Source: an uncultured Clostridium sp. (GTDB lineage: Bacteria > Bacillota > Clostridia > UBA1212 > UBA1255). From it: a stretch of 64,000 nucleotides of DNA. The translations under genes were made by a program, and so were the position numbers. The notes beneath the pieces were generated by a model. That model searched no databases, had not been told where the DNA came from, and saw nothing but the letters and a program-made list of their open reading frames with translations. Positions 3,911 through 26,381 of this stretch are shown here, in pieces. The stretch lies in NCBI GenBank assembly GCA_900543695.1, contig UQSG01000001.1, positions 10,136-74,135 of the forward strand, read 5' to 3'. Position 1 is the stretch's first letter. Every line of letters begins with the position of its first letter.

Positions 3911-3939
3911 AAGCTTTCCTCCTTATTCATTTTTATCGT

Positions 3940-8305: not shown

Positions 8306-8340
8306 AGCGGTCTTAATGGATCGCTTTATTTCTTTTTCTT
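8304..8340 (+). terminator. Intrinsic terminator after the AraC-family gene
   Basis: Hairpin AAAGCGGTC-ttaatg-GATCGCTTT followed by ATTTCTTTTTCTT, 1 nt after the stop codon. Confidence 0.55.
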
Positions 8341-9489: not shown

Positions 9490-9508
9490 AAAATGACTCC
9501 TCTCTTTG

Positions 9509-11029
9509 TTACGATTCCGACGGAATCGTATATTCTGTTACGGTACTTTCTCCGAATGTGTTGCGCGTCTGAATATAGCAGACATTTCCGTCTCTTTCTT
9601 CGGGGAGCTCGACACCGTCATTAATATTGTAATAGACCCATTCCCCCTGCGTCTCCGCATCAAAGGAAATCCGGTATTCGGTTGGATAGCCATCCAGGGA
9701 AAGGAAAAGCGCATCGTCGTCTGAAGAAAGGACCTCAGGGGCAGGCGGCGCCTCCTGCTTCCAGTAATTCAGCTTATACAGATTTGTTTTGACATTGTCA
9801 AACACAAGAAAACCGAAATCCACATTTGGTTCAATATGGGTGCTGCCATACAGCGACACTCCCTCCTGCGGCTGCTCCTTCCAGGCCATCGCATAATTAA
9901 AGCGGTTGATCAGAAGCGCTTTGGGAGACAGCTCCGCCACACCGCGGAGCGTACGTTCAAACGTCGTCTGACCGTTTACAATGTGATTCAGCTCATCCCA
10001 GTTCTCGCCGCCTTTATGGAGCGAGGCCCAGGCGATCATTTGCTCCACGCTTCCATCCGCAGCGTCTTTGTGGAAAATACGGTACATGCCTTCCCCGGCG
10101 TCAGGATCCTCTTCAGATTCTACAAAGAACCAAAGCGGCACATCGCCGGAAATGGACTTGCTTCCATCCTTCTGCTCTTCCGTATATGGAGACAAATAGC
10201 CGTTGCTGAAGCGAATATTGAAGCGCTCATCATCAAATATTTCAGTCCCCTCCGCTACTTTTTTCTGAAGCTCTGAATCAATAAAAATGATGAGAAACGG
10301 CTTGGAAGCGCGATCGGTCCCGTCCTGCAGACGATACCAGGCATCAGGATACTGTTCGTACAGCGTATAAACATCCGTCAGCACTTCATTCAGCGCATCG
10401 TAATTTTCCCCACTGAGCCGCACTGTAATGTAAATCTTGGGCGATTCGAAGCCAAGCGACGCCGATGCCTCCTTTAGAAGCACCTCCGTGTTTGCATAGA
10501 CTCCGTACGTATATTTATACCAGTCCTGTCCCGGCGTTTCCAGCCGGTAAGAAGTATAGTTGGTCCAGTCTACCGCCACGCCGTTGCAGCCGAGCGCTGA
10601 CATCCAATACAAATGCTGTCTGGCCGTTTCCGGATCTCTTTGATCATATAGGCCCATCAGCGGCGTTGTCGTCCGGTAATTGCCGCTCACCTGGACTGTG
10701 TCGGGATGCTGCGGGTTCAGCGGCCACCACCCTCTTTGCGGACGGCCGTTCGTCGTCGGTCCCGTGTCGATATCATACCACATAATCATATCCATGGTTC
10801 TTCTGCCCTCTTCTCTTGCGCTGAGCGTCTGCGGCTTTTCCACCGGTTTCGGTTCAGCAGCTCCTCTGCCGACATAGAAATAGATTCCAACCGCACACAG
10901 CACGGCCGCGCAAACAACCGCTGTTAAAGTGCAGCCCTTTGCCGAAAGCCTTTTCTTTGCATACAGTACAAACAGAAGAAGCGCGGCGATAACCGCCAGG
11001 AAAACAAGAAGCAATATTTTTACAAGCAT
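9509..11029 (-). CDS. N-terminally membrane-anchored extracytoplasmic protein, possible glycan-active enzyme
   Basis: 506 aa. Two N-terminal hydrophobic helices (LLLVFLAVIAALLLFVLYA; LTAVVCAAVLCAVGIYFYV) followed by a large soluble domain with an aromatic-rich segment HLYWMSALGCNGVAVDWTNYTSY. Function is inferred only from context. Confidence 0.35.
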   Translation of the reverse strand: MLVKILLLVFLAVIAALLLFVLYAKKRLSAKGCTLTAVVCAAVLCAVGIYFYVGRGAAEPKPVEKPQTLSAREEGRRTMDMIMWYDIDTGPTTNGRPQRGWWPLNPQHPDTVQVSGNYRTTTPLMGLYDQRDPETARQHLYWMSALGCNGVAVDWTNYTSYRLETPGQDWYKYTYGVYANTEVLLKEASASLGFESPKIYITVRLSGENYDALNEVLTDVYTLYEQYPDAWYRLQDGTDRASKPFLIIFIDSELQKKVAEGTEIFDDERFNIRFSNGYLSPYTEEQKDGSKSISGDVPLWFFVESEEDPDAGEGMYRIFHKDAADGSVEQMIAWASLHKGGENWDELNHIVNGQTTFERTLRGVAELSPKALLINRFNYAMAWKEQPQEGVSLYGSTHIEPNVDFGFLVFDNVKTNLYKLNYWKQEAPPAPEVLSSDDDALFLSLDGYPTEYRISFDAETQGEWVYYNINDGVELPEERDGNVCYIQTRNTFGESTVTEYTIPSES

Positions 11030-11052
11030 ACTATGCCACGCCTCCTATTTTT

Positions 11053-12174
11053 TCATGCATTGTTTTTTCTGCGCCGGATCACAATCCCAGCCGTCGCGCC
11101 AATGAGAAACGCCGCTGAAATGCCGAGCAGAAGTCCGGAATCACCGGTTGACGGGTTCGGCTTCTCCGGATCGGGATTCTGGTCCGGGTTCTGATCATCC
11201 GGATCGACAGGAATCTCAGGATCAACCGGATCCTCCGCCTCCGCCGTCTTACTGAGCTTCAGCGCATCCAGACGCGCACAGAATCTTCCGGAGCCATTGT
11301 CAACGCTAGAAATCGTGATTTTATGAATTCCTGCGGCCAGCTCTATCTCGCCCAGCTCCTGCTCTTCAAGCGTCCAGCCGCCGTCATGGTACAGATTGAC
11401 CGGCTCGCCAATCTCCTGACCATCGATCGCAATCTGAACGGAGCAGCTGTCATTGTTTAAGATGTAGGCAAGAGAAACGTTGTATTTTCCGGACTGCGGA
11501 ACAACGAGAGACACCGTTTCCAGAGAACGTCCAGCTTCATAGAAGTCCACGTTGACTATGGCGTCAACCGGCAGCGCTTCATGCGTGTAATTGCTTTCCA
11601 GATGGAATTCATCAGATTTGGTATATGCGTTTCCTTCAAATTCAAAGACAATTTCATCCGAGGGCGTCAGCTCCTCCAGGGTAAGATAATCCAGCAGCGC
11701 GCAGTAATACGCCGACTCCTGACTTGTAAAGGTCAGCGTATGCGTGCCTGCGGACAAAGTCATCAGGCCGACCGTTTTTTTACCAGCCTCCCAGCCGGCG
11801 CCGTTGTTCAGATTGATCTGACTGTCAATTACAGTGCCGTCAATTTTCATTTCTAAAATTCCGCCGTCCTGGTTCAATACGTATCCTAAAGTAATGAGAT
11901 AAATAGCTTCCTTTTCTACAGTGAACGTAGTTTCCAGAGCGTTTCCTGCCTCATAAAAGTTTACGTTCGCCGCACTTTCTACCGGGAGCGCCTCATGCAC
12001 AAAAGGCACCTCGAGAAAAAATTCTCCAGTTTGTGTCCATTCCTGATCTTCCAGCTCGAAGGTGATCTGCTCCTCGGCCGCACCTGCCGGAAGCAGGCTG
12101 CAAGCAAAAAGCGCCGCAACCACAAAGAAAATTAGGAAGCTAGCTTTACTTTTTCTTAATCCATGTTTTACCAT
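11053..12174 (-). CDS. Secreted surface protein with two tandem ~125-aa carbohydrate-binding-like beta-sandwich repeats, Pro/Asp linker and C-terminal transmembrane anchor
   Basis: Start reassigned to the internal Met (MVKHGLRKSKASFLIFFVVAALFAC), which follows RBS AAGGAGGA-N9-ATG. Repeat 1 ITFELEDQEW..LDYLTLEEL and repeat 2 IVFEFEGNAY..LDALKLSK are clearly homologous. Linker DPVDPEIPVDPDDQNPDQNPDPEKPNP. C-terminal LLLGISAAFLIGATAGIVIRRRKNNA. Confidence 0.55.
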   Translation of the reverse strand: MVKHGLRKSKASFLIFFVVAALFACSLLPAGAAEEQITFELEDQEWTQTGEFFLEVPFVHEALPVESAANVNFYEAGNALETTFTVEKEAIYLITLGYVLNQDGGILEMKIDGTVIDSQINLNNGAGWEAGKKTVGLMTLSAGTHTLTFTSQESAYYCALLDYLTLEELTPSDEIVFEFEGNAYTKSDEFHLESNYTHEALPVDAIVNVDFYEAGRSLETVSLVVPQSGKYNVSLAYILNNDSCSVQIAIDGQEIGEPVNLYHDGGWTLEEQELGEIELAAGIHKITISSVDNGSGRFCARLDALKLSKTAEAEDPVDPEIPVDPDDQNPDQNPDPEKPNPSTGDSGLLLGISAAFLIGATAGIVIRRRKNNA

Positions 12175-12338
12175 TTTAAAAATCCTCCTTTTCTTTTGAC
12201 AACTGTTCTGCCTAAAAAGATACCCCAAACATACATTCTTTTAAATAGACATTATCGTTTTTTTGTTGGACAATTCATAACACATTTTTTTGTAAAAAAT
12301 GTTTGGCGATAAGAAAATCTGGATATTTTTGTAAAAAA

Positions 12339-12421: not shown

Positions 12422-13885
12422 TCAGCGTTCCAGCATTTCCTGATACAGAGCATATTTTTCTCTGTAGACAGGAACCTTATGCGCGTCCGGAGAAAAGGTC
12501 TTCCGAATATGAACCATTTCTCTGGCAGCCGTATGATAATCCGGATATGCGCCGCAGCAAATGGAAGCAGCGATCGCAGCGCCCATTGCGCCGAGCTCTT
12601 TTCCGTCTACGACCTGCAGGGGCGTCTCAAGAACGTCGGCAAACAGCTGCATCCACACATCTGAATTTGCCGCGCCGCCCGCAATTCGAATATAAGGCGG
12701 CGTCTTTCTGTACTTCAGCAGTCTTTCAACATGCTGCTTGTGGGAAAATGCGACGCCCTCATATACCGCCCGCAGAAGATGCTCCGTACCATGACCGCTG
12801 TGCAGTCCTACCCACGCAGCATGCTTCCGGTTCCGTGCGTTGCTGCCGTATAAAAACGGGAAAAACAGAAGCGAAGAGGATTCCGGCGCTACAGAGGCCA
12901 CCATATTGTCGATTTCCCCGTAAGAGGGCTTATCCTTCCCAAACAATATGCCGCGTACCCAGTCCAGATTCCCTGCGGAAGTCGGACTGCTTTCTTCGAT
13001 AAGGTAATATCCCGGCATACAGAAAAGCGAATGATTCACGCCCTCCTCCGGCGCAACCGGTTCCTGCGATATATATTCGTTGATGCTCCACGTTCCGGTA
13101 ATAACGCAGATTGGAACGGAATCAGAGACGTCCATGGCGATCGCGCAGGCATCGATATCGAACATGCCTCCGCACACCGGAATTCCCTCGGGAAGCCCCG
13201 TACAGGCCGCTGCTTCTTTCGTTACGCAGCCACAGTGCGCTGAGGAATCCGCTAACGGCGGCAGACATTCCGCAATCTCCGGGATTCCGTAAAGTCTCAG
13301 CAATTCCGGATCATACGCTTTCTTCCGGAGGTTCAGAAGTCCCGTTCCGGAGGAATCCGTATATTCAGCGAAAGGACGGCCTGTCAGCATAAAGCGGATA
13401 TAATCCTTTGCTTCAAACACCCATTGAATGTTCTGATATACCTCCGGCTGATTCCGCTTCAGCCAGGCAAGGAGCGCAGTCGGCTGACATGCCAGAGTGG
13501 ATTGAAGATTCAGCAGCCCCGCCTGCGCCGTCGTTCCGTTCTGCTCCCATTCCCGAACGAGCTCGGCCGCCCGCTGGTCTGTCGAAGCAATTGCCGGCGC
13601 GCACGGTTTGCCGTCCTTTCCCCAGAGATACAGTCCTTTCCCATGACCGGTACATCCCACTGCGGCAATTTTCTCCGGAGCAATGCCGGAAGCAGATATC
13701 GCCTTTTGTATGGCAGCCGTCGTCTTCTCCCACAGAAAAATCATATCCCGTTCGTGATAGCCTTCCCGCACCACTGTAACGGGAGTTTGTTCAGAGGCAG
13801 CGCTCATCTGCTGCCCGCTGGAGGAAAATACGGCGGCCTTGATATTGGTTCCGCCATTGTCAATCCCTACAAAATATCGTTCCAT
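12422..13885 (-). CDS. FGGY-family carbohydrate kinase (pentulose kinase; L-xylulokinase/ribulokinase-like)
   Basis: 487 aa. N-terminal GIDNGGTNIKAAVF actin-fold ATPase motif. C-terminal FGGY motif IRIAGGAANSDVWMQLFADVLETP. RBS GAGGAG-N8-ATG. Sits between the isomerase-like gene and the surface-protein genes. Confidence 0.75.
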   Translation of the reverse strand: MERYFVGIDNGGTNIKAAVFSSSGQQMSAASEQTPVTVVREGYHERDMIFLWEKTTAAIQKAISASGIAPEKIAAVGCTGHGKGLYLWGKDGKPCAPAIASTDQRAAELVREWEQNGTTAQAGLLNLQSTLACQPTALLAWLKRNQPEVYQNIQWVFEAKDYIRFMLTGRPFAEYTDSSGTGLLNLRKKAYDPELLRLYGIPEIAECLPPLADSSAHCGCVTKEAAACTGLPEGIPVCGGMFDIDACAIAMDVSDSVPICVITGTWSINEYISQEPVAPEEGVNHSLFCMPGYYLIEESSPTSAGNLDWVRGILFGKDKPSYGEIDNMVASVAPESSSLLFFPFLYGSNARNRKHAAWVGLHSGHGTEHLLRAVYEGVAFSHKQHVERLLKYRKTPPYIRIAGGAANSDVWMQLFADVLETPLQVVDGKELGAMGAAIAASICCGAYPDYHTAAREMVHIRKTFSPDAHKVPVYREKYALYQEMLER

Positions 13886-13906: not shown

Positions 13907-15100
13907 TTATGCCTGCGCCTCGGCAGCAGGATAATGCTTCAGCATAACAAGCGGTTCATATGCGCTGGCATTTTCGACGAGCACGCCGTTCGAAGCGGCA
14001 GGATAAGAAACAAAAAATTCATCTTCGCTTTTCTGTCCAAAGCGCAGCATGGTCGCCGCAGCACAGCGCTGCCCGGCCAGCTTGCCGTAGCCCTGCACAA
14101 CGATGCAGCCGTATGCGGTGTCATCCGTGATCCGTGCAGAGCAGCCTGGATATACAGTCAGCTCTTTTGCCGCAATGTACTCGTTTCCGTATACAATCTG
14201 CTTTACCATATAGCTTTCCGTTTGTTCCAAAATAATGGGCGGACGGAAATAGTGTTCTTTATATTGCGGATCGATGTTCTTTTCCCAGTCCATCATTTCA
14301 ATAACATAGTCCGGATCTCCCCAATGCTCCGGCGGACAGTTTTCATAGAGGAAGCTGTCGTCATAGATTTCGCTGTCAGTAATATTTTCGAAGACCGCAT
14401 TTACGTCCGAATTCCACTGCGGTTCATAAGTAAGATAGGAGCCGGGAGCATGCAGCACTCCGGGCGGCGTATACCAGCCGGTTCCCAATTCGATCCGATA
14501 CGCTCTGGAAAGCTCTGTGATCCGCAGATCCCGCTTTTGATAGTCCCTCAGACGTTCCCGCAGATCATCCTTGGTGGTATCCGCAGTAAATCCAAAATAA
14601 GTGTGCGGAAATTTTCCGGGATAGTTATTATATTGCGGCGGATAATAATACGCCTCCGGTTTTCCCAGCTTTCCGACGCGCGCTGCAGCTTCAAAGCCCA
14701 GATGCATATGATGGAACAGAGGTCCCTCGTAATCAAAAAATTTGGAGTACATCGGCCACGTCTGGTGCCGTCTGTAACAGTTCTCTCCGATCATTTCTTC
14801 CCGAAGCGTATCGACAAATGCCTTCAGCGTGATTCTTTCCCCGCTGCAGCCATCCAGGTTTACATAGCTCATACCTTCGTCCGGCGCGGCGTCGGGGCCG
14901 TTCATTGCTGTAATTACAGAAGAAAACCAGCGTTCCTTAATGGAACCGCGTTTTGTGCCAAGCGCATAATAATCATCGGGATGCAGCCGCAGACGTCTGC
15001 CCGCCGTTCCGAAGCGGCGCGGTACGAATGTCGGGATAAGCGGAAGAACACCGCCGCGATCCTGAAAAAATGAATTTATAATTTCTTTTTCTGAACTCAT
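13907..15100 (-). CDS. Type-I phosphomannose-isomerase-like cupin protein (putative sugar aldose-ketose isomerase)
   Basis: 397 aa. Segments KFFDYEGPLFHHMHLGFE, EAYYYP and GTGWYTPPGVLHAPGS..EPQWNSDVNAVF parallel the Zn-binding and cupin motifs of class I PMI (KLLD..SIQVHPDD; ECWYII; FYYVPSGTLHA..ETQQNSDATYRV) as recalled. RBS AAAGGAAGAG. Confidence 0.45.
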   Translation of the reverse strand: MSSEKEIINSFFQDRGGVLPLIPTFVPRRFGTAGRRLRLHPDDYYALGTKRGSIKERWFSSVITAMNGPDAAPDEGMSYVNLDGCSGERITLKAFVDTLREEMIGENCYRRHQTWPMYSKFFDYEGPLFHHMHLGFEAAARVGKLGKPEAYYYPPQYNNYPGKFPHTYFGFTADTTKDDLRERLRDYQKRDLRITELSRAYRIELGTGWYTPPGVLHAPGSYLTYEPQWNSDVNAVFENITDSEIYDDSFLYENCPPEHWGDPDYVIEMMDWEKNIDPQYKEHYFRPPIILEQTESYMVKQIVYGNEYIAAKELTVYPGCSARITDDTAYGCIVVQGYGKLAGQRCAAATMLRFGQKSEDEFFVSYPAASNGVLVENASAYEPLVMLKHYPAAEAQA

Positions 15101-15447
15101 TTCATCTCTTCCTTTCTATATATTCTGTATATCAGTGTATAAATAAAAAGAGATTCTCTCAATGTACAATTTCTTGTTATCCATGGACAAATGCGTAAAA
15201 CCGGCTGCGGAAACGGAAGACGGCAAAATGTAAACCCAATGAGAAATGGATCACGGCAGATCTGACAATGGGCGCCGTCGAATCGAAATTTGCAGATATT
15301 ATCTGGCAAAATGAAGCAATTTCATCCGCCGGGCCTGCAAGCAAAGCCAACAATTGCTGGGCTGGAAGAAGAGCACATCTTTTACTGTGCTGAGGAGGAG
15401 CTCGAATATCTGCGCCGCCTGGTTGCAGAATACGAGGAGGAATAGAC

Positions 15448-15757
15448 ATGCAGGACTTCTTTCTTGATCGTCTTAATAAGAGTATTGCTGCAGGCTGGCT
15501 GGTTCTGGCCGTTATTGTGCTGCAGCCTGCTCTTTTAAGAATGCGTCTCGCCGGTTCTGCTTCTTGAAGGCGAGCCCCGGGAATTCATGATTTCCGGCAA
15601 GGATGAAACAGTTCTGGTTTACGTCTATGAAAGCCCGGCAGCCGCAGCGAAGCAGCAAGGGCTTGTTTCCAGCGACGGTTTTAGAATAATAATAAAGCAA
15701 AACGAAAACGAGTCATCCGAGATCATCTACGAATGGATTTCAGCGCCGCATTGGTAG
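15448..15757 (+). pseudogene. Apparent frameshifted remnant of a small membrane-anchored protein gene
   Basis: ATG at 15448 encodes MQDFFLDRLNKSIAAGWLVLAVIVLQPALLRMRLAGSAS then stops. The +1 frame from ~15539 continues ..VSPVLLLEGEPREFMISGKDETVLVYVYESPAAAAKQQGLVSSDGFRIIIKQNENESSEIIYEWISAPHW and stops at 15757. A one-base indel near 15530-15545 would join the two. Lies in a ~740-bp region that is otherwise non-coding. Confidence 0.3.
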
Positions 15758-15840
15758 CTCCGCGGCAACACGATCGCATTCTATGTCGGTACGGATGCGG
15801 CGGGCGCTTCCCCTTTCCGTTCTTCTTCGAGCCCTGTTTA

Positions 15841-16566
15841 TTATAAAACCTTAGAAAGAAAGTCCTTCGTCCGTGCGTGCTGCGGATTTCCAAACAGCTC
15901 CTCCGGCGTGTTTTGTTCGATGATCACGCCTTCATCCATAAACAGGACGCGGTTTGCCACCTCTTTTGCAAATCCCATCTCGTGTGTTACCACAATCATC
16001 GTCATGCCTTCATCCGCCAGCTCGTGCATCAGAGACAGCACCTCGCCTACCATTTCCGGATCCAGCGCGCTCGTCGGTTCGTCAAACAGCATAACCTCCG
16101 GATTCATGGCAAGCGCCCGCACGATCGCAACACGCTGCTTCTGCCCTCCGGAAATCATGGAGGGATACGCGTTGACCTTGTCCGCAAGCCCGATCCGTTT
16201 CAGCAGCCGGTTCGCATTTTCCGCCGCCTCTTCCTTTGTTTGCAGCTTCAGCTTTACCGGAGCAAAAGAAATATTTTCCAGAATTGTAAAATGAGGAAAT
16301 AAATTAAAATGCTGAAAAACCATCCCCATGCTGCAGCGGATTTTATTAATATCCACATTTGGTGCCGTAATATCCACGCCTTTAAAAAGCACCTTTCCGC
16401 TCGTGGGCGTTTCCAGCAGGTTCAGGCAGCGCAGGAACGTGCTCTTTCCCGAGCCGGAAGGGCCTATCACGACAACCTTTTCATTTTTTTGAATTTTCTC
16501 GCTGATACCGTTTAATACGATTTTTTTGCCGTCAAACGTCTTTACGAGATTTTCAGTTTCGATCAC
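15841..16566 (-). CDS. Polar amino acid-type ABC transporter ATP-binding protein (GlnQ/HisP-like)
   Basis: 241 aa. Walker [10 protein letters not shown]. Signature [15 protein letters not shown]. Walker [13 protein letters not shown]-loop VVTHEM. Start overlaps the permease stop by 14 nt. Confidence 0.9.
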
Positions 16567-18622
16567 TTCTGTTCAATCTCCTTTCAAACCGCTTAAATAC
16601 GGCAGACAATCCAAATACCAGAATCAGATAAATCAGCGCCACGAATAAAAGCGTAAAGAACGCATCCGCCGTCCGGCTCCGAACCAATTCTCCGGCCCGT
16701 GTGAGATCGATCACTCCAAGATATCCGATTACAGAAGTTTCCTTCAGTACCGCGATAAATTCATTGCCAAGAGCCGGCAGGATATTTTTGAATGCCTGCG
16801 GCAGCACGATGCTCTTCATCGTCGTGACCTGTGACAGCCCGAGCGACCGTCCCGCCTCGGTCTGCCCCTTATCTACGGAATTGATCCCCGCGCGTATAAT
16901 CTCAGAAACGTAAGCGCCAGAATTGATGCTGAAAGCAAAAATACCAATTAATACCGCTCTGTCCGAGAAAACGAATATGACGTTGTAAGTAATCAGAAGC
17001 TGCACCACGACCGGCGTGCCGCGGATTACCGTCGTATAAAATTCCGCAATAAAATTCAGAAACCGCAGCACAGGATTCCTCTTTTTTGCAAGGATCGTCT
17101 GATGGTTCCACACCTTAACGATCGCGATCAGCATTCCGATTATGACGCCGAAGCCCGTCGAGGCCACCGCCACGAGCAGCGTATTCCCCAGACCCTCCAG
17201 AAACAGCTTGTACCGATTGTCCCGGATAAAGGTTTTATCGATCATCTCTTTAAAATATGAGACAATTCCCTGAAAAAAGCGAACGAAGGCGTTTCCCTCC
17301 TCCTGAGGAGCTTCCCCGGCAGGCGCAGAAGCACCGGAGGCCGTGAAAATATTTTTCAAACGCATTTTTCCGACGCCGGAAAATGCCGGGGCGTCGCTGT
17401 ACAGGCCCTCCGCCGCGTCATATAAAACGGGCACGATTACGCCGTCGTCCTCATTCTGCCTGAGTTCCTCACATTTCGCAGCCAGGTCTGTTTCCTGTGT
17501 CCAAAGCGCGTCCTGCGCCTTTGCCCATTCCTCATTCCCATTCTGATCGACCAGCAGGATTCCCTGATCCAGCGCCGTTTCCTGCCAAAGCTCCGGCAGC
17601 GCGCCGCTGCGGTACGTTATTACGTTCCAGCCGATTTCTTTCAGCAATTCAAAAAAAGAATTGATCCATTCCCGGTTCCAGGTGTATCCCGAATTCTTTG
17701 GGTTTGCAAAAAAATCGGATACGATCAGGTCCATTCCGTAACGGTATCCCTCCGTACCGAACAGCTGCCCGCTGCGCAGGGCAAACGGCACCGTAATACG
17801 ATCTCCCGAGGTAATAATCTCCGCAGTATAAACGTATGGCTTCTCTGCCGTCCAGACGTTTTTTTCGGTAAAATCCTCGATTTCAATCCCGGAAACGTTC
17901 GCGCTGGCATTCCCTCCCGACAGAATATCAATTCCTTCCAGAAGAAACGAGCCCTTTTCCGCACCGTCCGGATCGTAAACAGCAATCGAAACGTCCGTTT
18001 TCACGTCTTCCTCCCGCGGATTAAACAGGTTGAGCGCAAAGGAAACCGTACCGGCCTCCGGATCCGTCTCAACATCCACCGAAACAATCGCCGGAGCGCT
18101 GCTGAATATCAGCTCAATCCGATCTGCAAGGCAGGCGCCGGATACAGACGCATCCGAAGCGCGTTCAAGCAGTACAATCGTATTTTCCCCCGTATGCAGC
18201 AGCGGCGCGATATTTTCTCCGGCCAGAGCGCCGTTTACATAGACCGCGGCAGCTCCCTGGGATGAGCCGAAATCAAGCAGGACGACTTCCGCAGGAGGAT
18301 TTGCCAGAGAAATCGTTTTCCGGTACCACACGCGCGTTTTCCCCTCCGGAAGCGCCGAATAAGAAGGAAGGAGAACCGTGCCGCCGGAAGCAAGAGATTC
18401 CGGAACCGACTGAGGAATTTCTTCGTCAGACGCGTCATCCGTAAATAACTCCCATTCTCCTGCCAGTGAAACGGTCTCTCTGGTATTTCCCACAATCACG
18501 GAGGACTGGCCTCCGTCTTCTGCAGCGGAAAAGGAGCCGCAGCAAAGGGCGGCAAGACAGAGCGTTAAAATTAAAATTCTGCCCGGTAAGCGGAGCGTAT
18601 TATTTCTTATGTGTTTCATCAA
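16553..18622 (-). CDS. Fusion protein: signal peptide, catalytically truncated GH2-glycosidase-like extracytoplasmic region (~460 aa), then a polar-amino-acid-type ABC permease domain (~220 aa)
   Basis: 689 aa in one open frame. N-terminal [32 protein letters not shown]2 sugar-binding jelly-roll pattern [52 protein letters not shown]2 sandwich-domain motif [14 protein letters not shown]. Start of the GH2 TIM barrel [56 protein letters not shown], but no catalytic acid/base or nucleophile segments follow. Then HisM/GlnP-like permease ..[72 protein letters not shown]. Start overlaps the stop of the upstream GH2 gene (ATGA). Confidence 0.6.
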
Positions 18623-20958
18623 AAGCCCTCGAATTCGTCAAAGCCGCATTTCTCCAGCGCTTTCAGGTAAGCGTCGTAGTCGATATCTATAATGTTCGTA
18701 AAATAATGGTTGCGATGCGTGCCGCCATCCTTCTGCCATTCGATCAGGTAAAAGTTCTTCTCCCCGTCTTTCAGCTTCAGCTCTCCGATCCGCGTAGACG
18801 CGTCAGCCGGAAGCAGCGCTTCCCCTTCCAGCACAAGCCTTCCGTCCTCCGTAATGTTTTTCACGGTAAAAGAAACCTCGGCGTCCGCTGTCGTATCGTT
18901 CACGCCGTACAGCGGCAGGAAGCCGTTCTCCGGCTCCCGGAACATCAGGCATACGGGATTCTGAGACCGTTTAATAAAATGGTACGCAAGCTTCTTTGTG
19001 AAATAATAGTCTACAATCGCATCCGAAATCTGCGGCCAGCCGTCCAAAAGGTTCCACCAGATAATGCCGGTCCGCCTCCATTTGGACGCCCGGAAGCGTT
19101 CAATGAAGAATTTCTTTGCCTCCGCCTGCGAAATCTGACTTTGTTTTGCAAAGTTTTCCAGATCCTGCGCCTCCGTTTTGCCGAACAGCGTCTTCACCTG
19201 ATTTGCCATCAGCCGGATCCTGTAAGAATATGCCACGTCCGGAAGCAGCTCCATGCAGGCCGCATGCACCTGCCATTCGTCCCTGGAAAGGCCGTTTTCT
19301 TTAAAGCAAGGCCAAAGCTCTTCCTTGGAAAGGAATTTTTTCAGAGATTCCGGAGACGGACAGCCATGATACCCCGTTTCACTTGCAAAATGGCAGACCG
19401 TCGTATTATAGTAAGGCCCCTTGAAATAATCGCGCGGGCCCCACAGATGATCCTCGGACGTCGGTTTTCCGCCGACATAAGATTCTTCGGTAATATAGGG
19501 AGAGCTCGGGAGGTATGGGCGGGTAAAGTCATACGCCTCGCAGGCTCTTGCCAGCACTTCGCGCGTTACGATATTTTTATCGGGATTTCTGCGGATGCCG
19601 CCCCAGTCCTGATACGCGTAGTCGCCCTCGTTGTCTCCGGCCCACAGCACAAGGGACGCATGGTTGCGCAAGCGCTTGATAATATGCTTCGCTTCGGTCT
19701 CCAGCATTTCGAAAAACCTGCGTTCCTGCGGATATACGGCGCAGCCCATGGCAAAATCCTGCCACACCATGATCCCGTGCCGGTCACAGAAATCAAAGAA
19801 GAAATCATCCTCATAAACATTGCCGCCCCAGCAGCGCGTGATATTGCAGCCCAGGTCGTCCAGCAGCTCAAGCGCTTTCGGAAGCCTGTTAATATCATTG
19901 GAATGAAACGCGTCTACCGGAACCCAGTTCGATCCCATGGCAAATACTTTCTTGCCGTTGATCTTAAAGCAGAACTCGCCGTGCCCTTCCTCGTCCGTGA
20001 CGTTTGTCCGATCGAGCTCTACGGTCCGTACGCCGAAATTCACCGTATAGGTATCGCACAGCTCGTCTTTATAATATAAGTTCACTTTCGTCTCATAAAG
20101 ATTTGGTTCTCCTGCGTTTTTCGGCCACCAATATTTGCAGTTCTGGATCCAGAAGCGGAAATGGCCCTCTGTGTGCCAAAGCCTCTTTTTGAAGTAAAAC
20201 CGGCTGTCTCCGCAGATTCCCTCCACTTCCAGGGAATACTCTTTCAAGAGGTCTCTTGAGACGTCCACGTGGAAAAAAATGGATGCGGCGGCAGAACGTC
20301 CCGCAGGATCGATACCGGTCGTGTACAGAAACGCATCGTCGATGCGGTCGGCCTTCCTGCGCAGAATGGAAACAGGCTTCCAGATCCCGCATGATACGAT
20401 CCGGGGCATGATATCCCATCCGAACATATGCGGCGCCTTGCGGAGATAAAGCGAATCATACGCATACTCCTGCGCATTGCTCGACGGCGGCAGGCGGAAC
20501 TCCCGTGCCGCAATGGAAGCCGGCCAGATATGGACCACCAGCTCGTTTCTGCCGTTCTTCAAATCGGGAAGCCCGATTTCGTAAGAAAGATACATGTTGT
20601 CGGTGTGGCGCACCAAAGCGCCGTTCACGTAGATGTCCGCAATGGTGTCGATTCCTTCAAATTTTATGTACTCCGTGCCGTCCGGATCACTGAGCTCAAA
20701 TTCGTTGTAATACCATACATGCCGATTTTCAAGGTCCTGCATCGCCAGGGGATTAAGGCCGAAAAACGGATCCCCGATGACATTGGCATGATAAAGGTCA
20801 AGCTCAAAATTTCCGGGAACGCTCGCAGGAATCTCAGGCAGCTTTTTTTCTTTCAGCGAAGCAATGTCCCGAATCTGATCCGCATATTCCCGGCAGATAT
20901 AATTTTCCTCGTAAGCGATCCGCCAGCCGCTTCCGAGCTTCAAAATGGTTTTGTCCAT
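18619..20958 (-). CDS. GH2 beta-mannosidase (cytoplasmic)
   Basis: 779 aa with no signal peptide. GH2 sugar-binding domain (..IKFEGIDTIADIYVNGALVRHTDN..). TIM barrel with acid/base segment LVLWAGDNEGD and nucleophile region FASETGYHG. Beta-mannosidase-type C-terminus. RBS AAGGAG-N8-ATG. Confidence 0.8.
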   Translation of the reverse strand: MDKTILKLGSGWRIAYEENYICREYADQIRDIASLKEKKLPEIPASVPGNFELDLYHANVIGDPFFGLNPLAMQDLENRHVWYYNEFELSDPDGTEYIKFEGIDTIADIYVNGALVRHTDNMYLSYEIGLPDLKNGRNELVVHIWPASIAAREFRLPPSSNAQEYAYDSLYLRKAPHMFGWDIMPRIVSCGIWKPVSILRRKADRIDDAFLYTTGIDPAGRSAAASIFFHVDVSRDLLKEYSLEVEGICGDSRFYFKKRLWHTEGHFRFWIQNCKYWWPKNAGEPNLYETKVNLYYKDELCDTYTVNFGVRTVELDRTNVTDEEGHGEFCFKINGKKVFAMGSNWVPVDAFHSNDINRLPKALELLDDLGCNITRCWGGNVYEDDFFFDFCDRHGIMVWQDFAMGCAVYPQERRFFEMLETEAKHIIKRLRNHASLVLWAGDNEGDYAYQDWGGIRRNPDKNIVTREVLARACEAYDFTRPYLPSSPYITEESYVGGKPTSEDHLWGPRDYFKGPYYNTTVCHFASETGYHGCPSPESLKKFLSKEELWPCFKENGLSRDEWQVHAACMELLPDVAYSYRIRLMANQVKTLFGKTEAQDLENFAKQSQISQAEAKKFFIERFRASKWRRTGIIWWNLLDGWPQISDAIVDYYFTKKLAYHFIKRSQNPVCLMFREPENGFLPLYGVNDTTADAEVSFTVKNITEDGRLVLEGEALLPADASTRIGELKLKDGEKNFYLIEWQKDGGTHRNHYFTNIIDIDYDAYLKALEKCGFDEFEGF

Positions 20959-21016
20959 AAATACACTCCTTAATTTTCATCATAATTCAAATACATACTG
21001 TGAAATTATATATGAA

Positions 21017-21718
21017 TCACTTTTTAAATACAATATCCTTTTCCGGTATAAAAAGCGGGATTCCCAGATTATCCAAAAAATCGCACATTTGCTTTACGCG
21101 CTCCTTCCGGTATTCGCCGCGTCTGTGGCTGTCAAATCCTACGCTGAGGCAAACGCCTGCGTTTTTCACAAGCTTCTGCTGCTCCCTGCTGTTCAGAAAG
21201 GTCTGAACGTACGGATGCTCCCTGTAGCCGTGAACAGAATCGTAGTTGACGTTCATCTCCCAGAAAATTCCGTTTTCCGCCAGCCCGGCAAAATATGCTT
21301 CCGGATCTGATCCCTTGCGTTCCAGATAAGAAAACAGATCCGTATGTGCGATCCCCGTAGGACAGCCGCAGCGCTTGGAAAACGATATAATATTTTCCCC
21401 GCCGACACAGCTGTCCGGCCGGTCGATATGTTCTACAAGGCAATAGTCGAAATAGGAAATATCCTCTTCCGGCGCAAGGCAAAGACCGTTTACCGTGGCG
21501 ATTTCAATTCCTCTGAAAAGGCGGATTTTTCCGCTGTATTTCTGCTGAAGCTCTGTCAGGAGGCTGAAGTAGCGGCGTTTTTTATCGCCGATTCCATAAT
21601 TGTGATCCGATATGCCGAACACGTCGATTCCGGATTCAATGGCTTTCAAAATCAAAAGCTCCGGATCATCTGCGCCGCAGGCAGAAAAATACGTATGTGA
21701 ATGCAGATCCTGTGTCAT
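21017..21718 (-). CDS. PHP-family metal-dependent phosphoesterase (histidinol-phosphatase-like)
   Basis: 233 aa. N-terminal DLHSHTYFSACG motif and GISDHN, typical of PHP domain. RBS GGGAGAAAG. Lies between ftsY and the beta-mannosidase gene in the same orientation. Confidence 0.7.
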   Translation of the reverse strand: MTQDLHSHTYFSACGADDPELLILKAIESGIDVFGISDHNYGIGDKKRRYFSLLTELQQKYSGKIRLFRGIEIATVNGLCLAPEEDISYFDYCLVEHIDRPDSCVGGENIISFSKRCGCPTGIAHTDLFSYLERKGSDPEAYFAGLAENGIFWEMNVNYDSVHGYREHPYVQTFLNSREQQKLVKNAGVCLSVGFDSHRRGEYRKERVKQMCDFLDNLGIPLFIPEKDIVFKK

Positions 21719-21732
21719 AGGCTTTCTCCCGC

Positions 21733-22641
21733 TTATTCAAACAGCGCTCTTACATAGTCCTCCGGCGAAAAGGGCTGCATATCCCCGATGCCTTCTCCTA
21801 CGCCGACCAGGCGGACCGGAATGCTCAGCTCGTTGCAAATGGAGACGATAATGCCGCCTTTAGAGGAACCGTCCAGCTTTGTAAGAACGATTCCGGTCAG
21901 CTCCGCCACCTCGGAAAATGCCTTAGCCTGATTTACCGCGTTCTGTCCCGTCGTGGCGTCCAGCACGAGAAATGTTTCACGCCGAACGTCCGGCAGCTCT
22001 CTGGCCACGACACGCGCCATCTTCGCAAGCTCATCCATAAGATTTTTCTTGTTATGGAGCCGTCCCGCCGTATCGCAGATCAAAACGTCGGCTTCTCTGG
22101 CCTTCGCGGCTCTGCAGGCGTCAAACAGCACTGCCGCGGGATCCGCGCCCTCTGCCTGCCGGATCAGCTCCGCCCCGGAGCGTTCTGCCCAGACGGCAAG
22201 CTGATCGCCCGCCGCCGCACGAAACGTATCGCCGGCCGCAAGAAGCACCTTTTTCCCCGCGTTCCTGTACAGATGGGCAATTTTACCGATGGACGTCGTT
22301 TTCCCGACGCCATTTACGCCGATCACCGTAATAACTGCAGGCACGTCGTCCAAATCAAGGCCGCGCGCTCCGATATCGAGCAGCCCTGCAATAATCTCCT
22401 GCAGCTCGGAACGGATCTGCGAGGCCTCCGTCAGCTTCTTCGTCTTTACGGATTCCCGCAGCTTTTTCAGGATTTCCTCCGTCGTCTGCACGCCGAAGTC
22501 GGACGAGATCAGCACATCCTCCAATTCCTCAAAAAGCGCTTCATCAATTTTGCCAAACCCCGCGAGAATCGTATCAACCGTTCCCAGAAAGCTCTCCTTT
22601 GTTTTCTTCAGCCCGCTTTTCAGCTTATCGAAAAATCCCAT
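21733..22641 (-). CDS. ftsY: Signal recognition particle receptor FtsY (short NG-domain form)
   Basis: N domain plus SRP GTPase G domain: GVNGVGKTTSIGKIA, DTAGR, TKLDG..KGG. Start set at MGFFDKL (RBS AAAGGAG-N9-ATG). The ORF could begin 9 nt earlier, at 22650. Follows smc as in many Firmicutes. Confidence 0.85.
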   Translation of the reverse strand: MGFFDKLKSGLKKTKESFLGTVDTILAGFGKIDEALFEELEDVLISSDFGVQTTEEILKKLRESVKTKKLTEASQIRSELQEIIAGLLDIGARGLDLDDVPAVITVIGVNGVGKTTSIGKIAHLYRNAGKKVLLAAGDTFRAAAGDQLAVWAERSGAELIRQAEGADPAAVLFDACRAAKAREADVLICDTAGRLHNKKNLMDELAKMARVVARELPDVRRETFLVLDATTGQNAVNQAKAFSEVAELTGIVLTKLDGSSKGGIIVSICNELSIPVRLVGVGEGIGDMQPFSPEDYVRALFE

Positions 22642-22668
22642 GGCCGGCATCTCCTTTCCCTGTTCTCC

Positions 22669-25600
22669 TTATGAATCCATTTTCAGCGATATTACTTTCG
22701 AAATTCCCTTTTCCTCCATCGTTACGCCGTAAAGGGAGCCGGCGTTTTCCATCGTGCCTTTCCGATGGGTAATCAGAATAAACTGCGTGCCTCCGTCGAT
22801 TTGACGCAAATAATCCGAAAGCCTGTATACGTTGGCATCATCTAACGCCGCTTCGATTTCGTCCAAAAGGCAGAACGGAGAGGGATGCATTTTCAAAATT
22901 CCAAACAGCAGTGCGATTGCGGTCAGCGCGCGCTCTCCGCCGGAAAGCAGCAGCATATTCTGGAGCTTTTTCCCGGGAGGCTGCGCCTGGATTTCGATGC
23001 CGCATTCCAGGATATCCTGCGTTTCATCCAGAACAATATCTGCCTTCCCGCCGCCGAACAGCTGCCGAAAAACCTCCTTGAAATTATCACGGATCAGGCG
23101 GAATTGCTCCGAGAACTGGCGGCGCATCACAGCGTTCAGATCTGATATCACTTTTTGGAGCTTTGCTTTTGCTTCGCTGAGGTCTCCCATCTGGGCGGAA
23201 AGAAACGTATGGCGCTCTTTTGTGCTTTCGTATTCCTCCACGGCATTGACGTTTACCGCGCCGAGCGCCTTTATGCTGGCTTTCAGCTCTTTAATGCGGC
23301 GGGAGGCTTCCGTATAATTTTCCGTACGTTTTCCTCCCGTCAGCTCCTTTGCCGAGGAATACGCCAGCTCGTATTCTTCCCACAATCTGTTTTTATTTGC
23401 GTTGATCTCGCTTTCTTCCCGTACCTTTTTGATTTCCGCCTGATTCAGACGCTCCGTGCAGCGCGCAATCTGCTCGCTGGTTTCCGTAATTCTGCCGAGC
23501 ATTCCGCCAAGCTCCGCGTCAATTTCCCGTTTCATTTCTTCGTAATTTCTCTGCGTTTCGGCTTCCGCCTGCCGTTCATCGGAAATGCCGGCGATGGAAA
23601 TTTCATTCTCTGTATTGCTGTTTTCAAGCTGGCGGACCGCTGCTTCGCAGTCCCGGATCTGTAGGCTGCAATATTCGATTTGTTCCTTCCCCTCAGAGAG
23701 GGAACGCTCGTATCGTTTTCGATCCTCCTCTGCCTTTTGGAGTCGGGCGCGGAGATCGGCTTCCTTGACTCTCCGCTCCATCAAATTCTGGTTTTTTGCT
23801 TCCAGGAGCCGTTCTGCTTCTTCTCTGCGAAGGTCCGCCAGACGCAGCCGTTCCTCCGCCCTGGACTGCTCCCCCGCGAGCCGCTCCTGTGCTTCTTCCG
23901 CCGATTCAATTGCGCGCCGCGCATCCAGCATATTGCTGATCTGGAGCTTCAGCTCCGCTACAAGCCGTTGCCGGCGCGCCGTTTCGCCGGCCTGTCGGTC
24001 CCGCATTGCCGTGCATTTTGCCGTCCACTGAGAAAGCGAAACCTCCAGGGCACGCATTTCCTTCATGAGCGCATCGCGTTCTTTTTCGATTCCCTGCGCA
24101 GACGTCTGATAGGAATCGAGCGTTTTGCGGATTTGTATGAGCAAAGCGCTATTATCCGCCACGGCTTTCTCCAGCTCGGGTATTTCTCTCGTTCTGGAAA
24201 GCGTTCCGGCGGAGGCGCGTCCTTTTTCTGTGCTGCCGCCTGTAATCGCTCCCGAGGTCCGCAGGATATCTCCGTCCAGCGTAACGCACATGACGGCGTA
24301 GCGTGTTCTGCCCGCAAAGAGCAGCGCATGATCCAGCCGGTCGAATACGGCGGTGCGTCCAAGCAGGCTTTCGACCGCTTTTTTATATTTTCCCTCAAAT
24401 TGCACAAGCCCGGAGGCCGTGCCCAGGAAGCCTTCCGCCCGTTCCAGCATACGAACCGTTTCCGGATCGAGCGGCCGGCCGTTTACCGCAGTCAGCGGCA
24501 GAAACGTCGCTCTGCCGTATCTCCCCTTTTTCAGATATTCGATCGCCTTTTTGGCGTCCTCCTCCGTCTCGGTTACAATATTTTGGTATGCCTGACCAAG
24601 CGCCGTTTCAATTGCGGTTTCATATTCTGCCGGGACGCGCAGAATCTGCGCTACGGCGCCGCAAATGCCCCGTCCAAAGTCCGGATTCGATTTGCACAGT
24701 GACAAAACCTTCTTAACGCTGTAGGCGTATCCCTCGTAATCTGCCTCCATTTCCCGGATCGCTTTAAGGCGCGCCGTATCTCCCTGAAGACGCGCCGACA
24801 GGACAGCGGCACGCTCCGATTCTTTTTTTTCTCCGCTTTTTGCCGTCTCCAGCGCTTCTGTTTTATTTTTATAAAGCTGTTTGGCGTCCTCAAGGGACTC
24901 CTCTGTTTTCTGCCGGTTTTCCTCCGCCGCTTCGATTTCCTCCGCCGCAATGGCAGTGCTGGAATCCAGAACGGCCAATTCTTCATCAATGGCGTTTTTT
25001 CTGTCGGTAATCATTTCGATTTGCTTCTGATACGATTCGGCGGCGCTGCGCGCGTTTCCCTGCTGCAGCTTGATTTCCAGAATCGCCTCTGATGCAGCGG
25101 AAACCTCTTTTCGGATTTCTTCGGAGGCCTTGAAATCGGCGCGATATTCCTCCTGCAGCGCTTCCGTCTCTGCAAGCTCTGCCTCCAGCGTTTTCTGCGC
25201 CTCCGAACGTTCCCGCTCCGTTTCCTCGATGCGAAGCTCATACGCTCCGTTCTTCTGCTTCTGCTGCTCCTGCTCTGCGGCCAGTCTGTTTTTATTCTCC
25301 TCGGCGCTTTTAATCTTTTCCCGATTGATTTCGATTTCGCTTTTCAGACGCTCGATCTTTTTTTCCAGCGCATACGATTTTTCTTTGCTGGCGTTGATCA
25401 GGCCGGAAAGCAGTCCTGCTTTTTCCGTTTTTTCCGAATTTTCGCGCCGGATGCGTTCCAATGATTTTTCGGCTTCGGTTCTGTCCTGCGTTAAAATTTC
25501 AATGTCATTGATGATTTTTTTCAGGCGCTCTTCCGCAAAATCAATTCCGTCCACGAGCACGCCGACCTCAATGCCGCGCAGCTCATATTTATAATCCAGA

Positions 25601-26244
25601 TATTTTTTCGCCGTTTCAGCCTGCTTTTCCAAGGGCTTCAGCTGCTGCGCAAGCTCGGAAACGATATCTCCTACGCGCAGGAGATTCTGCTCCGTCAGGT
25701 TCAGCTTTCGTTCACTTTCCTGCTTTCGCATTCTGTACTTCATAATGCCGGAGGCATCTTCAAAAATATTTCTCCGGTCCTCCGATTTACTGTTCAGGAT
25801 TTCGTCTACCCTGCCCTGACCAATTAAAGAATAGCCGTCCTTTCCAATTCCCGTGTCGGCAAATAAGAGATGAATGTCCTTCATCCTGCACTGCGCATTG
25901 TTGATCAGATATTCGCTGTCGCCGGAACGATAAAGCCGGCGTGTAATTTTGACCTCGCTGAAATCGATATTCAGAAAACGGTCTTCGTTATCCATGACCA
26001 GAGAGACTTCCGCCATCCCCACGGGCCTCCTGTTTTCCGTACCGGAAAAGATCACATCCTCCATGCGGCTGCCTCTGAGCGTCTTAGGGCTTTGTTCTCC
26101 GAGCACCCATTTCACAGCGTCAGAAATGTTGCTCTTACCGCTTCCGTTCGGGCCGACGACTGCCGTGATTCCCTTATTGAAATCCAGTACGGTTTTATCC
26201 ACAAAGGACTTAAAGCCCTGCATCTCTAATCTTTTTAAATACAA
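22669..26244 (-). CDS. smc: Chromosome segregation protein SMC
   Basis: N-terminal Walker A GPNGSGKSNI after LYLKRLEMQGFKSF. Long coiled coils. Hinge. C-terminal signature LSGGERALTAIALLF and Walker B LDEIEAALD. Likely TTG start (MYLKRLE) 8 nt after RBS GGAGAGA, so the longer ORF to 26277 is probably 5-prime over-extension. Confidence 0.9.
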   Translation of the reverse strand: MYLKRLEMQGFKSFVDKTVLDFNKGITAVVGPNGSGKSNISDAVKWVLGEQSPKTLRGSRMEDVIFSGTENRRPVGMAEVSLVMDNEDRFLNIDFSEVKITRRLYRSGDSEYLINNAQCRMKDIHLLFADTGIGKDGYSLIGQGRVDEILNSKSEDRRNIFEDASGIMKYRMRKQESERKLNLTEQNLLRVGDIVSELAQQLKPLEKQAETAKKYLDYKYELRGIEVGVLVDGIDFAEERLKKIINDIEILTQDRTEAEKSLERIRRENSEKTEKAGLLSGLINASKEKSYALEKKIERLKSEIEINREKIKSAEENKNRLAAEQEQQKQKNGAYELRIEETERERSEAQKTLEAELAETEALQEEYRADFKASEEIRKEVSAASEAILEIKLQQGNARSAAESYQKQIEMITDRKNAIDEELAVLDSSTAIAAEEIEAAEENRQKTEESLEDAKQLYKNKTEALETAKSGEKKESERAAVLSARLQGDTARLKAIREMEADYEGYAYSVKKVLSLCKSNPDFGRGICGAVAQILRVPAEYETAIETALGQAYQNIVTETEEDAKKAIEYLKKGRYGRATFLPLTAVNGRPLDPETVRMLERAEGFLGTASGLVQFEGKYKKAVESLLGRTAVFDRLDHALLFAGRTRYAVMCVTLDGDILRTSGAITGGSTEKGRASAGTLSRTREIPELEKAVADNSALLIQIRKTLDSYQTSAQGIEKERDALMKEMRALEVSLSQWTAKCTAMRDRQAGETARRQRLVAELKLQISNMLDARRAIESAEEAQERLAGEQSRAEERLRLADLRREEAERLLEAKNQNLMERRVKEADLRARLQKAEEDRKRYERSLSEGKEQIEYCSLQIRDCEAAVRQLENSNTENEISIAGISDERQAEAETQRNYEEMKREIDAELGGMLGRITETSEQIARCTERLNQAEIKKVREESEINANKNRLWEEYELAYSSAKELTGGKRTENYTEASRRIKELKASIKALGAVNVNAVEEYESTKERHTFLSAQMGDLSEAKAKLQKVISDLNAVMRRQFSEQFRLIRDNFKEVFRQLFGGGKADIVLDETQDILECGIEIQAQPPGKKLQNMLLLSGGERALTAIALLFGILKMHPSPFCLLDEIEAALDDANVYRLSDYLRQIDGGTQFILITHRKGTMENAGSLYGVTMEEKGISKVISLKMDS

Positions 26245-26381
26245 ATTTCTCTCCTCGGCTCCCGGAAAATATTTCAATCAAAGCGGATTTTACAATATTT
26301 TTAAAGAGCTTGTCAACCTTGCGCATCATTATTTATTCCGGTAAAATAGGAAGGAAGCTTGAGAGATTCGGAGGATTCGAT

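Follow-up and report, generated by a model that had tools for sequence, protein, structure and literature searches.

ATP-binding cassette (ABC) importers of type I are generally described as strictly dependent on a receptor with the periplasmic-binding-protein fold, which determines the choice of substrate and triggers ATP hydrolysis. In GlnP, the binding domains are tethered to the N-terminus of a permease of the polar amino acid transport (PAAT) type. Substrate has been found bound within the translocation pathway of ArtQN, apo-MetQ can work as a gate rather than as a carrier, and binding-protein-independent variants of MalFGK2 exist (PMC6233128). Here we describe a PAAT-type transporter encoded on a 64,000-nucleotide (nt) stretch of DNA (hereafter the window) from an uncultured Clostridium sp. 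(contig UQSG01000001.1 of assembly GCA_900543695.1, forward-strand positions 10,136 to 74,135), in which the permease is fused to an extracytoplasmic module. Judging from its sequence, the fusion partner consists of a signal peptide and a truncated, catalytically dead module of glycoside hydrolase family 2 (GH2) at the place of the binding protein. A targeted literature search found no GH2-permease fusions, and this arrangement is undescribed.

The fusion gene (16553..18619, minus strand) encodes 688 amino acids (aa) from an ATG at 18619, or 689 aa from a TTG at 18622, and residues are numbered here in the 689-aa form. Its C-terminal part (residues 456-689; 16556..17257, minus strand) is an ArtQ-like PAAT permease domain, which matched BPD_transp_1 (PF00528) at residues 472-689 (E 7.5e-21) and the model TIGR01726 (47.4 bits versus a cut-off of 42.2), indicative of a TcyL/GlnP-like permease of PAAT type. 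The EAA loop is intact (EAGRSLG...LPQA at residue 589), as are the Walker A, signature and Walker B motifs in the sequence of the GlnQ/TcyN/ArtN-like ABC ATPase (241 aa; ABC_tran, E 2.3e-35) whose gene (15841..16566, minus strand) overlaps the fusion gene by 14 nt. Compared with thousands of ordinary Clostridial 'amino acid ABC transporter permeases' of 228-237 aa, the permease domain showed 63-76% identity, and the closest of these stand-alone permeases (73-76%) are located in operons of the order SBP_bac_3-permease-ATPase. The closest solved relative of the domain is ArtQ of the Arg/His importer Art(QN)2 (4yms, E 2.8e-44), and the substrate-binding protein (SBP) of the sister operons is closest to ArtI (4ymx, E 1.3e-43). 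With regard to the carbohydrate uptake transporter classes CUT1 and CUT2, Pfam and NCBIfam identified a single PAAT-type permease, no MalF/MalG pair and no SBP_bac_1. By all these comparisons, the core would be a homodimeric polar-amino-acid importer of the Art(QN)2 type, built from one permease gene and one ATPase gene, and nothing in the transporter sequence appears to point to oligosaccharide transport.

In a phylogenetic tree, the fused permeases formed a monophyletic clade inside the canonical permeases. This clade has in common a 7-aa insertion (LAKKRNP) after the first membrane helix, in a loop that is probably cytoplasmic, and the insertion was absent from all of the 115 canonical sequences compared (115/115). 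The fused clade furthermore carries several fixed substitutions within the loop that connects the fourth and fifth membrane helices, which probably faces outward, and directly behind that loop.

The preceding residues 1-455 of the 689-aa protein are not permease. A signal peptide (residues 1-34; 18521..18622, minus strand), recognized by alignment and hydropathy from its basic n-region, its hydrophobic core and a conserved cleavage-type site (..SAA before E/D), is followed by a 391-residue tethered module, then by a variable linker and finally by the permease. The module comprises three domains on the same strand: a GH2-type jelly-roll or 'sugar-binding' domain (residues ~35-175; 18098..18520), assigned from profile, fold and structure matches; a GH2 immunoglobulin (Ig)-like domain (residues 182-272; 17762..18097), for which profile and fold matches accompany a Pfam score exactly at the threshold (PF00703, 23.0 bits versus a cut-off of 23); and a partial TIM-barrel domain (residues ~288-425; 17348..17761), the first 73 residues of which align to strands beta1-beta3 of GH2 barrels. 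The linker (residues ~426-455; 17258..17347, minus strand) varies in length from 25 to 35 residues, shows 24-40% identity between lineages and is of low complexity, as would be expected of a tether. The sequence-only reading of this DNA had spoken of a permease fusion; the fusion is real, although its partner had not been recognized as a truncated and catalytically dead GH2 module.

Several searches placed the module among GH2 proteins. A homology search with the module alone returned 12 protein clusters (42-97% identity), 11 of which carry a C-terminal BPD_transp_1 domain, the twelfth being a 343-aa fragment on a 1.6-kb contig. Among solved structures, the module profile matched GH2 beta-glucuronidases and a galactofuranosidase over their jelly-roll and Ig domains. 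The AlphaFold model of the module was confident for the first two domains, and a Foldseek search of the PDB returned 293 matches at E<=1e-3, of which all 50 listed were GH2-type enzymes aligned over ~370 columns. An exhaustive profile search of 1.84 billion representative proteins recovered five representatives of the fused family, followed by a tier of divergent, full-length and mostly secreted GH2 enzymes (P0017-P0037), which mostly matched only profile positions ~12-326, position ~326 corresponding to barrel strand beta3. Against these enzymes, the third domain scored an hhalign probability of 97.4% (E 1.5e-11) over beta1-beta3. We also considered that the third domain might be a degenerate lobe of an SBP, which we rejected given an hhalign probability of 0.1% against the SBPs of the sister operons versus the 97.4% against GH2 barrels. 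Likewise, the module is not a partial duplicate of the beta-mannosidase gene that adjoins it, as the two share 27% identity over 102 aa of the jelly-roll; the nearest full-length relatives of the module belong to the divergent secreted GH2 clade, which is distinct from that of the neighboring enzyme.

A complete (beta/alpha)8 barrel is not present, with at most ~90 residues between beta3 and the linker. The barrel of the module is cut after about beta4-beta5, ahead of the strand that bears the nucleophile (beta7). In our alignment, the divergent GH2 relatives carry the NE (acid/base, beta4) and NEY (nucleophile) motifs, both of them invariant, while members of the fused family have E, D or S at the acid/base column, never with the preceding Asn, and the NEY motif has no counterpart in the module, which ends earlier. 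Because the nucleophile strand and the conserved acid/base motif are both missing, the module is a truncated, catalytically dead GH2 that cannot act as a GH2 hydrolase.

To judge whether this extension is a maintained part of the protein, we compared it between lineages. The reading frame is unbroken from the signal peptide to the stop codon of the permease in about nine lineages with a complete gene, even though these have diverged to 39-44% identity. For the pair formed by the window and loci L012/L013, which is unsaturated (dS ~0.23), the ratio of nonsynonymous to synonymous substitution rates (dN/dS) reached 0.17 in the module as against 0.026 in the permease domain. Within the module, the Ig domain had the highest value (0.24), compared with 0.15-0.16 in the jelly-roll and 0.15 in the third domain. 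The module is thus under purifying selection. The third domain is its most conserved part, with 30 invariant positions across all variants, among them five Trp as well as Asp, Asn, Arg, Gln and Lys residues.

A natural short form of the fusion isolates this domain. The 449-aa variant P0015, encoded on an 87-kb contig (locus L027, 10001-11350; GCA_045580735.1), consists of the signal peptide, the third domain, the linker and the permease, without the jelly-roll and Ig domains. Its gene lies directly after ftsY, at the same smc-ftsY site as the other fusions, with neither a GH2 nor a PHP gene as neighbor. In a neighbour-joining tree, the variant is nested within the fused clade, and therefore the jelly-roll and Ig domains were lost secondarily while the partial barrel was kept. 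In a further relative, Candidatus Egerieisoma faecipullorum, the module is present but hidden by annotation: in locus L012 (6627-8001; DVMM01000143.1, GCA_018714995.1), NCBI calls a 230-aa permease only, and the 1.37-kb module stays without annotation in spite of an open frame that extends from 6618 to 8693 and has the module in frame. The internal start that this call implies, at Met460, was rejected, given that it has no Shine-Dalgarno sequence at suitable spacing and that the 455 codons upstream are under purifying selection. As such annotation hides the module, surveys based on domain architecture under-count fusions of this kind.

Canonical sister operons carry a gene for an ArtI-like SBP immediately upstream of the permease, and in the fusion this place is taken by the GH2-derived module. 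With Pfam, no SBP_bac_3 domain was found in the fusion protein, nor among the open reading frames of the window that have at least 180 aa and resemble real genes, overlapping frames judged spurious being left out. There was likewise no SBP_bac_3 gene within ~10 kb of the fusion in those related loci whose genes carry Pfam calls, and tblastn searches of the related loci with two SBP queries gave no match. The absence of a binding-protein gene from this PAAT-type system, which had been proposed from the window alone, is thus borne out both in the window and in the related loci. Since the fused clade is monophyletic inside permeases of SBP-permease-ATPase operons, the GH2 fragment occupies the position of the binding protein, and a single event would have placed it where the binding-protein gene stood.

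The arrangement is rare. In a survey with one genome per species, only 7 of 185,579 species genomes carried the module, all of them metagenome-assembled genomes of uncultured Clostridia recovered from chicken, human, water-deer and buffalo gut. One of the carriers is Candidatus Egerieisoma faecipullorum, whose contig is a near-identical counterpart of the window (92% identity in the module and 96-99% in the flanking genes). Overall, the fused arrangement occurs in about nine lineages of uncultured gut Clostridia.

Given these observations, we hypothesize that the locus encodes an Art(QN)2-type importer whose binding protein has been replaced or is supplemented by a tethered pseudo-enzyme domain of GH2 origin, a reading to which we assign a rough probability of 0.42. 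In such a transporter, two GH2-derived modules would be held outside the membrane by the flexible linkers of ~30 residues, and the membrane-proximal partial barrel might dock on the outer face of the permease dimer, where it could serve as the receptor or gate, a role normally played by a Venus-flytrap binding protein. Hydrolysis of ATP by the ATPase dimer would then drive the import of an amino-acid-like substrate. We place the partial barrel at the core of this model because no other part of the module is as well conserved or survives in the short variant, and because it abounds in invariant Trp, Asp, Asn and Arg residues. By analogy with the 73-76% identical permeases, the substrate is most likely a polar or basic amino acid or a compound resembling an amino acid, and in those lineages that have translational coupling to an upstream gene for an intact cytoplasmic beta-mannosidase, it may be glycan-linked. 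The tethering seen in GlnP, the internal substrate site of ArtQN, the gating by apo-MetQ and the MalFGK2 mutants together make a receptor or gate mechanism of this kind conceivable. A bolder version, in which this would be a natural type I importer without any Venus-flytrap protein and the tethered half-barrel, possibly pairing across the homodimer, would act as receptor or gate, seems rather doubtful to us.

A number of points weigh against the replacement of the binding protein by the module. In its outer loops, the permease has remained very close to its SBP-dependent sisters. The search for an SBP covered the window and the related loci, and a free ArtI-like protein encoded elsewhere could still dock on the permease. 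The third domain reached predicted local distance difference test (pLDDT) values of only 30-60 in two AlphaFold runs (the module alone, and the full-length protein with a 60-sequence alignment), and neither its fold beyond beta3 nor its docking to the permease is supported by these models. That one lineage has lost its jelly-roll and Ig domains might also reflect the decay of a dispensable appendage. Finally, we know of no natural type I ABC importer with a partner other than a Venus-flytrap protein, and a targeted literature search found none.

The main rival is an ordinary importer served by a free SBP that is encoded elsewhere in the genome, either as an orphan or borrowed from a paralogous operon, with the module as an accessory surface domain. 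This domain might anchor the protein to glycans or the cell wall in the manner of a lectin, or it might assist in SBP docking as the P2 loop of MalF does. The sharing of binding proteins between PAAT systems is established, with HisJ and ArgT both working on HisQMP2. Together with this precedent, the 73-76% identity of the permease to SBP-dependent sisters, the small number of fixed changes in its outer loops, the dispensability of the jelly-roll and Ig domains in L027 and the evolutionary rate of the module, which is about six times that of the permease domain, all favor such a scenario. It is less easily reconciled with the lack of an SBP gene within ~10 kb in the related loci examined and among the scanned open reading frames of the 64-kb window, with the location of the module at exactly the position of the SBP gene in the sister operons, or with the retention of the membrane-proximal domain and its 30 invariant positions in all variants. 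Taken together, we consider a free SBP somewhat unlikely.

The other readings involve the genes that surround the transporter. On the minus strand, the list of open reading frames gave, head to tail, ftsY (21733..22650; 305 aa; TIGR00064, 345.6 bits), which encodes the signal recognition particle receptor, a gene for a PHP-domain protein (21017..21718; 233 aa; weak PHP match by Pfam), a gene for a GH2 beta-mannosidase homologue (18619..20958; 779 aa; Glyco_hydro_2_N2), the permease fusion and the ATPase gene. The co-oriented string is headed by smc (22669..26277, minus strand; 1202 aa), directly upstream of ftsY. The gap between ftsY and the PHP gene is 14 nt, and that between the PHP and GH2 genes is 58 nt and contains AAGGAG 8 nt ahead of the GH2 ATG. 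At the junction between the GH2 and fusion genes (TTGATGA), the ATG at 18619 shares 1 nt with the TGA stop codon of the GH2 gene, while the listed TTG start at 18622 would create a 4-nt overlap. As every relative starts at an ATG that overlaps the GH2 stop codon by one base, translation of the fusion probably starts at the ATG at 18619 rather than at the TTG. Just 5' of smc lies the best-matching sigma-70-like site of the region (26316-26287, 11/12 matches), and a scan of the region found no convincing terminator between the genes of the string.

The sequence-only reading had described these five genes as co-oriented and closely packed, and all of its coordinates, gaps and overlaps were found, while its domain calls (FtsY, PHP, GH2, PAAT permease and ATPase) agree with Pfam and NCBIfam, the PHP match being weak. 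Its observation is therefore confirmed, and its interpretation, according to which the operon serves the import and cleavage of a beta-mannoside, is partly supported. The gene order is not due to chance, as it recurs in several species-level lineages, and all related loci with sufficient upstream sequence have ftsY 5' of the transporter. However, ftsY is part of a housekeeping smc-ftsY pair, and ftsY, smc and the PHP gene are neighbors rather than working parts of the transporter. In a canonical sister operon (L011, 7100-10867), the SBP, permease and ATPase genes are directly followed by scpA-scpB, which encode the partners of SMC; this recurring adjacency to genes of the SMC complex (scpA-scpB in L011, smc-ftsY in the fused operon) is probably a coincidence.

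The 779-aa GH2 itself is an intact cytoplasmic beta-mannosidase homologue, in line with what the sequence-only reading had proposed. It has no signal peptide and is homologous over its full length to CapGH2b (9nfe, E 1.5e-158), with further matches to 5n6u and 2vjx. CapGH2b belongs to GH2_13 and is a confirmed beta-mannosidase that acts on oligosaccharides and not on polymers (PMC12770490). The acid/base E444 and the nucleophile E527 of the 779-aa protein align to E465 and E553 of CapGH2b, and Cys406 is kept (C427 in CapGH2b). The equivalent of C517, the second switch cysteine, is Ser493, and the published C427-C517 disulfide redox switch is therefore not expected to operate in this protein.

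The PHP protein offers less to build on. No PDB relative was found for it, and a PHROGs scan of this protein and of the module returned no match. Homologues with 49-59% identity in other Clostridia adjoin genes for replication, tRNA modification or lysine biosynthesis, and no link to a GH2 or ABC gene was seen in these neighborhoods. The suggestion that the PHP enzyme trims a phosphorylated substrate thus finds no comparative support, and its candidacy as a functional partner was dropped in view of these unrelated contexts and of its absence from L019 despite the presence of the GH2 gene.

A comparison of the neighborhood in related genomes, which had been proposed as a check on the operon, showed that the cluster recurs, but also that the GH2 gene is absent from four lineages and that the PHP gene is not conserved. 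Three gene orders follow smc-ftsY. The Egerieisoma group and three or four other lineages have PHP-GH2-fusion-ATPase, L019 has GH2-fusion-ATPase, and L004, L018, L020 and L027 have fusion-ATPase alone. Of the nine lineages with the highly conserved transporter, four (L004, L018, L020 and L027) thus have no GH2 gene, and the PHP gene, which is present in five lineages, is absent from these four and from L019. Since the transporter is kept without GH2 in four lineages, and without PHP also in L019, its function is independent of both. A GH2 neighbor was nonetheless found in both main subclades of the fused family in the tree, and the adjacency is therefore probably ancestral to the fused clade and was later lost.

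These data bear on the proposal that the PAAT system imports an intact beta-mannoside or a fragment of the N-glycan core, which the GH2 enzyme would cleave and the PHP enzyme dephosphorylate. In its favor, the GH2 and fusion genes are translationally coupled (TGATG) in all lineages that have both, the GH2 protein is an intact cytoplasmic homologue of a characterized beta-mannosidase acting on oligosaccharides, its gene is a neighbor in both main subclades and so probably was from the outset, and the extracytoplasmic module derives from a sugar-binding enzyme fold. Yet the translocation domain resembles ArtQ and is of the amino-acid type, a highly conserved transporter persists without GH2 in four lineages, L019 has GH2 without PHP, and PHP homologues elsewhere have unrelated neighbors. 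Moreover, the module stems from another GH2 clade than the neighboring enzyme (27% identity over 102 aa), and no other genes for the use of mannan or N-glycans are adjacent. Of the original claim of intact beta-mannoside import, the translational coupling and the probably ancestral adjacency stand, while the amino-acid-type core speaks against it and, as a general role of the transporter, it is contradicted by the four lineages without GH2. We therefore regard such import as possible but weakly supported, and the operon as a dedicated beta-mannoside pathway as improbable.

Even less probable is that the module survives as a selectively near-neutral relic, left when a deletion fused the permease gene to the 5' part of a secreted GH2 gene, and contributes a signal peptide and nothing else. 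Such an origin is plausible from the gene order, in which a glycoside hydrolase gene lies upstream and the SBP position is replaced, and both the loss of two of the three domains in L027 and the poor conservation of the linker would fit. A relic is hard to align, however, with the dN/dS of 0.15-0.24 for each of the three domains at unsaturated dS, with a frame that stayed intact in about nine lineages with complete genes diverged to 39-44% identity, or with the 30 invariant residues of the third domain, including its five Trp. Least probable of all, by analogy with FtsEX, is that the ABC core is not a nutrient importer and instead drives a conformational change of the module in signaling or envelope remodeling. 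The lack of a binding protein at the locus would suit this, as would the location immediately behind smc-ftsY in all fused lineages with enough upstream sequence at the locus, but the protein has a type I importer fold, its EAA loop is complete and its pathway motifs resemble those of ArtQ. Known mechanotransmitters are built on another ABC fold, and the synteny may reflect shared ancestry within one narrow clade.

Other features of the window lie downstream and upstream of this cluster. In the 740-bp gap past the ATPase gene (15101-15840), we found remnants of blaI/blaR1 (Peptidase_M56), a pair that is intact in a sister strain (L013, 15511-17621); the BlaR1 remnant of the window points to an internal deletion, since its residues 1-17 run straight into residues 473-562. 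The next gene (13907-15100) encodes a 397-aa protein with no Pfam or NCBIfam match, which is paired with an FGGY sugar kinase (12422-13885) and may be an uncharacterized sugar isomerase; the pair is conserved in L006, L013 and L021. Beyond it, a co-oriented cluster (93-12228) resembles an uncharacterized sugar-catabolic locus and comprises large proteins without Pfam match (1128, 757, 506 and 387 aa) as well as a CBM6 protein, a divergent AraC regulator, a xylose-isomerase-like TIM protein and a class II aldolase. On the other side, an 823-aa protein (31054-33525) combines E1_dh, Transket_pyr and Transketolase_C, that is, a fused E1 alpha/beta of a 2-oxoacid dehydrogenase, and adjoins E2 (27913-29637) and E3 (29655-31022).

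If the tethered module indeed replaces the binding protein, it would represent a new class of capture domain for ABC importers and a clean case of the exaptation of a pseudo-enzyme through operon fusion. The role of the receptor could then pass to an unrelated fold, or a translocator of the ArtQN type could run on its internal site, and an amino-acid-type translocator might perhaps reach glycan-linked amino compounds. The 449-aa variant provides a natural minimal construct for experiments. Should the module be merely accessory, it would be a curiosity of one small clade of gut Clostridia.

Compared with known systems, the transporter is closest to Art(QN)2/ArtI of Caldanaerobacter (Thermoanaerobacter) tengcongensis (PDB 4YMS-4YMX), which imports basic amino acids as a homodimeric PAAT system. 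Both have one permease and one ATPase gene, the match to ArtQ covers the whole permease domain, and the motifs of the ATPase and the EAA loop are intact; unlike Art(QN)2, the present locus has no ArtI-type protein, and its permease carries a 455-residue N-terminal secreted extension and the 7-aa insertion. The overall architecture is instead that of GlnPQ from Lactococcus lactis and of OpuA, with a signal peptide, one or more extracytoplasmic domains, a flexible tether and a PAAT permease, and with two modules per homodimer; for GlnP, we took the tethered-domain architecture from the molecule names of PDB entries 6h30 and 4kpt. The difference lies in the tethered module, which is a truncated GH2 and not a Venus-flytrap SBP_bac_3 domain (hhalign 0.1%). 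This module is homologous to GH2 enzymes with beta-galactosidase- and beta-glucuronidase-like structures in its jelly-roll, its Ig-like domain and barrel strands beta1-beta3, and it keeps many structural invariants of these enzymes (the WY..F and VYVN motifs, the Arg of beta2 and the Asp of beta3). Unlike these enzymes, it has a barrel that is cut short, an acid/base NE that is not conserved and a fusion to a membrane transporter. The neighboring 779-aa GH2, in turn, resembles CapGH2b (PDB 9NFE) in both catalytic Glu residues and the first switch cysteine, but it is cytoplasmic, belongs to a Clostridial host and adjoins an amino-acid-type ABC system, whereas CapGH2b is periplasmic and part of a mannan polysaccharide utilization locus. 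As to mechanism, apo-MetQ with MetNI and the MalFGK2 suppressors show that an outer partner can act as a gate-opener and that selection of the substrate can lie with the permease itself (PMC6233128). They represent either laboratory variants or secondary modes, in systems that do contain an SBP, whereas the absence of an SBP from the locus described here is natural and conserved.

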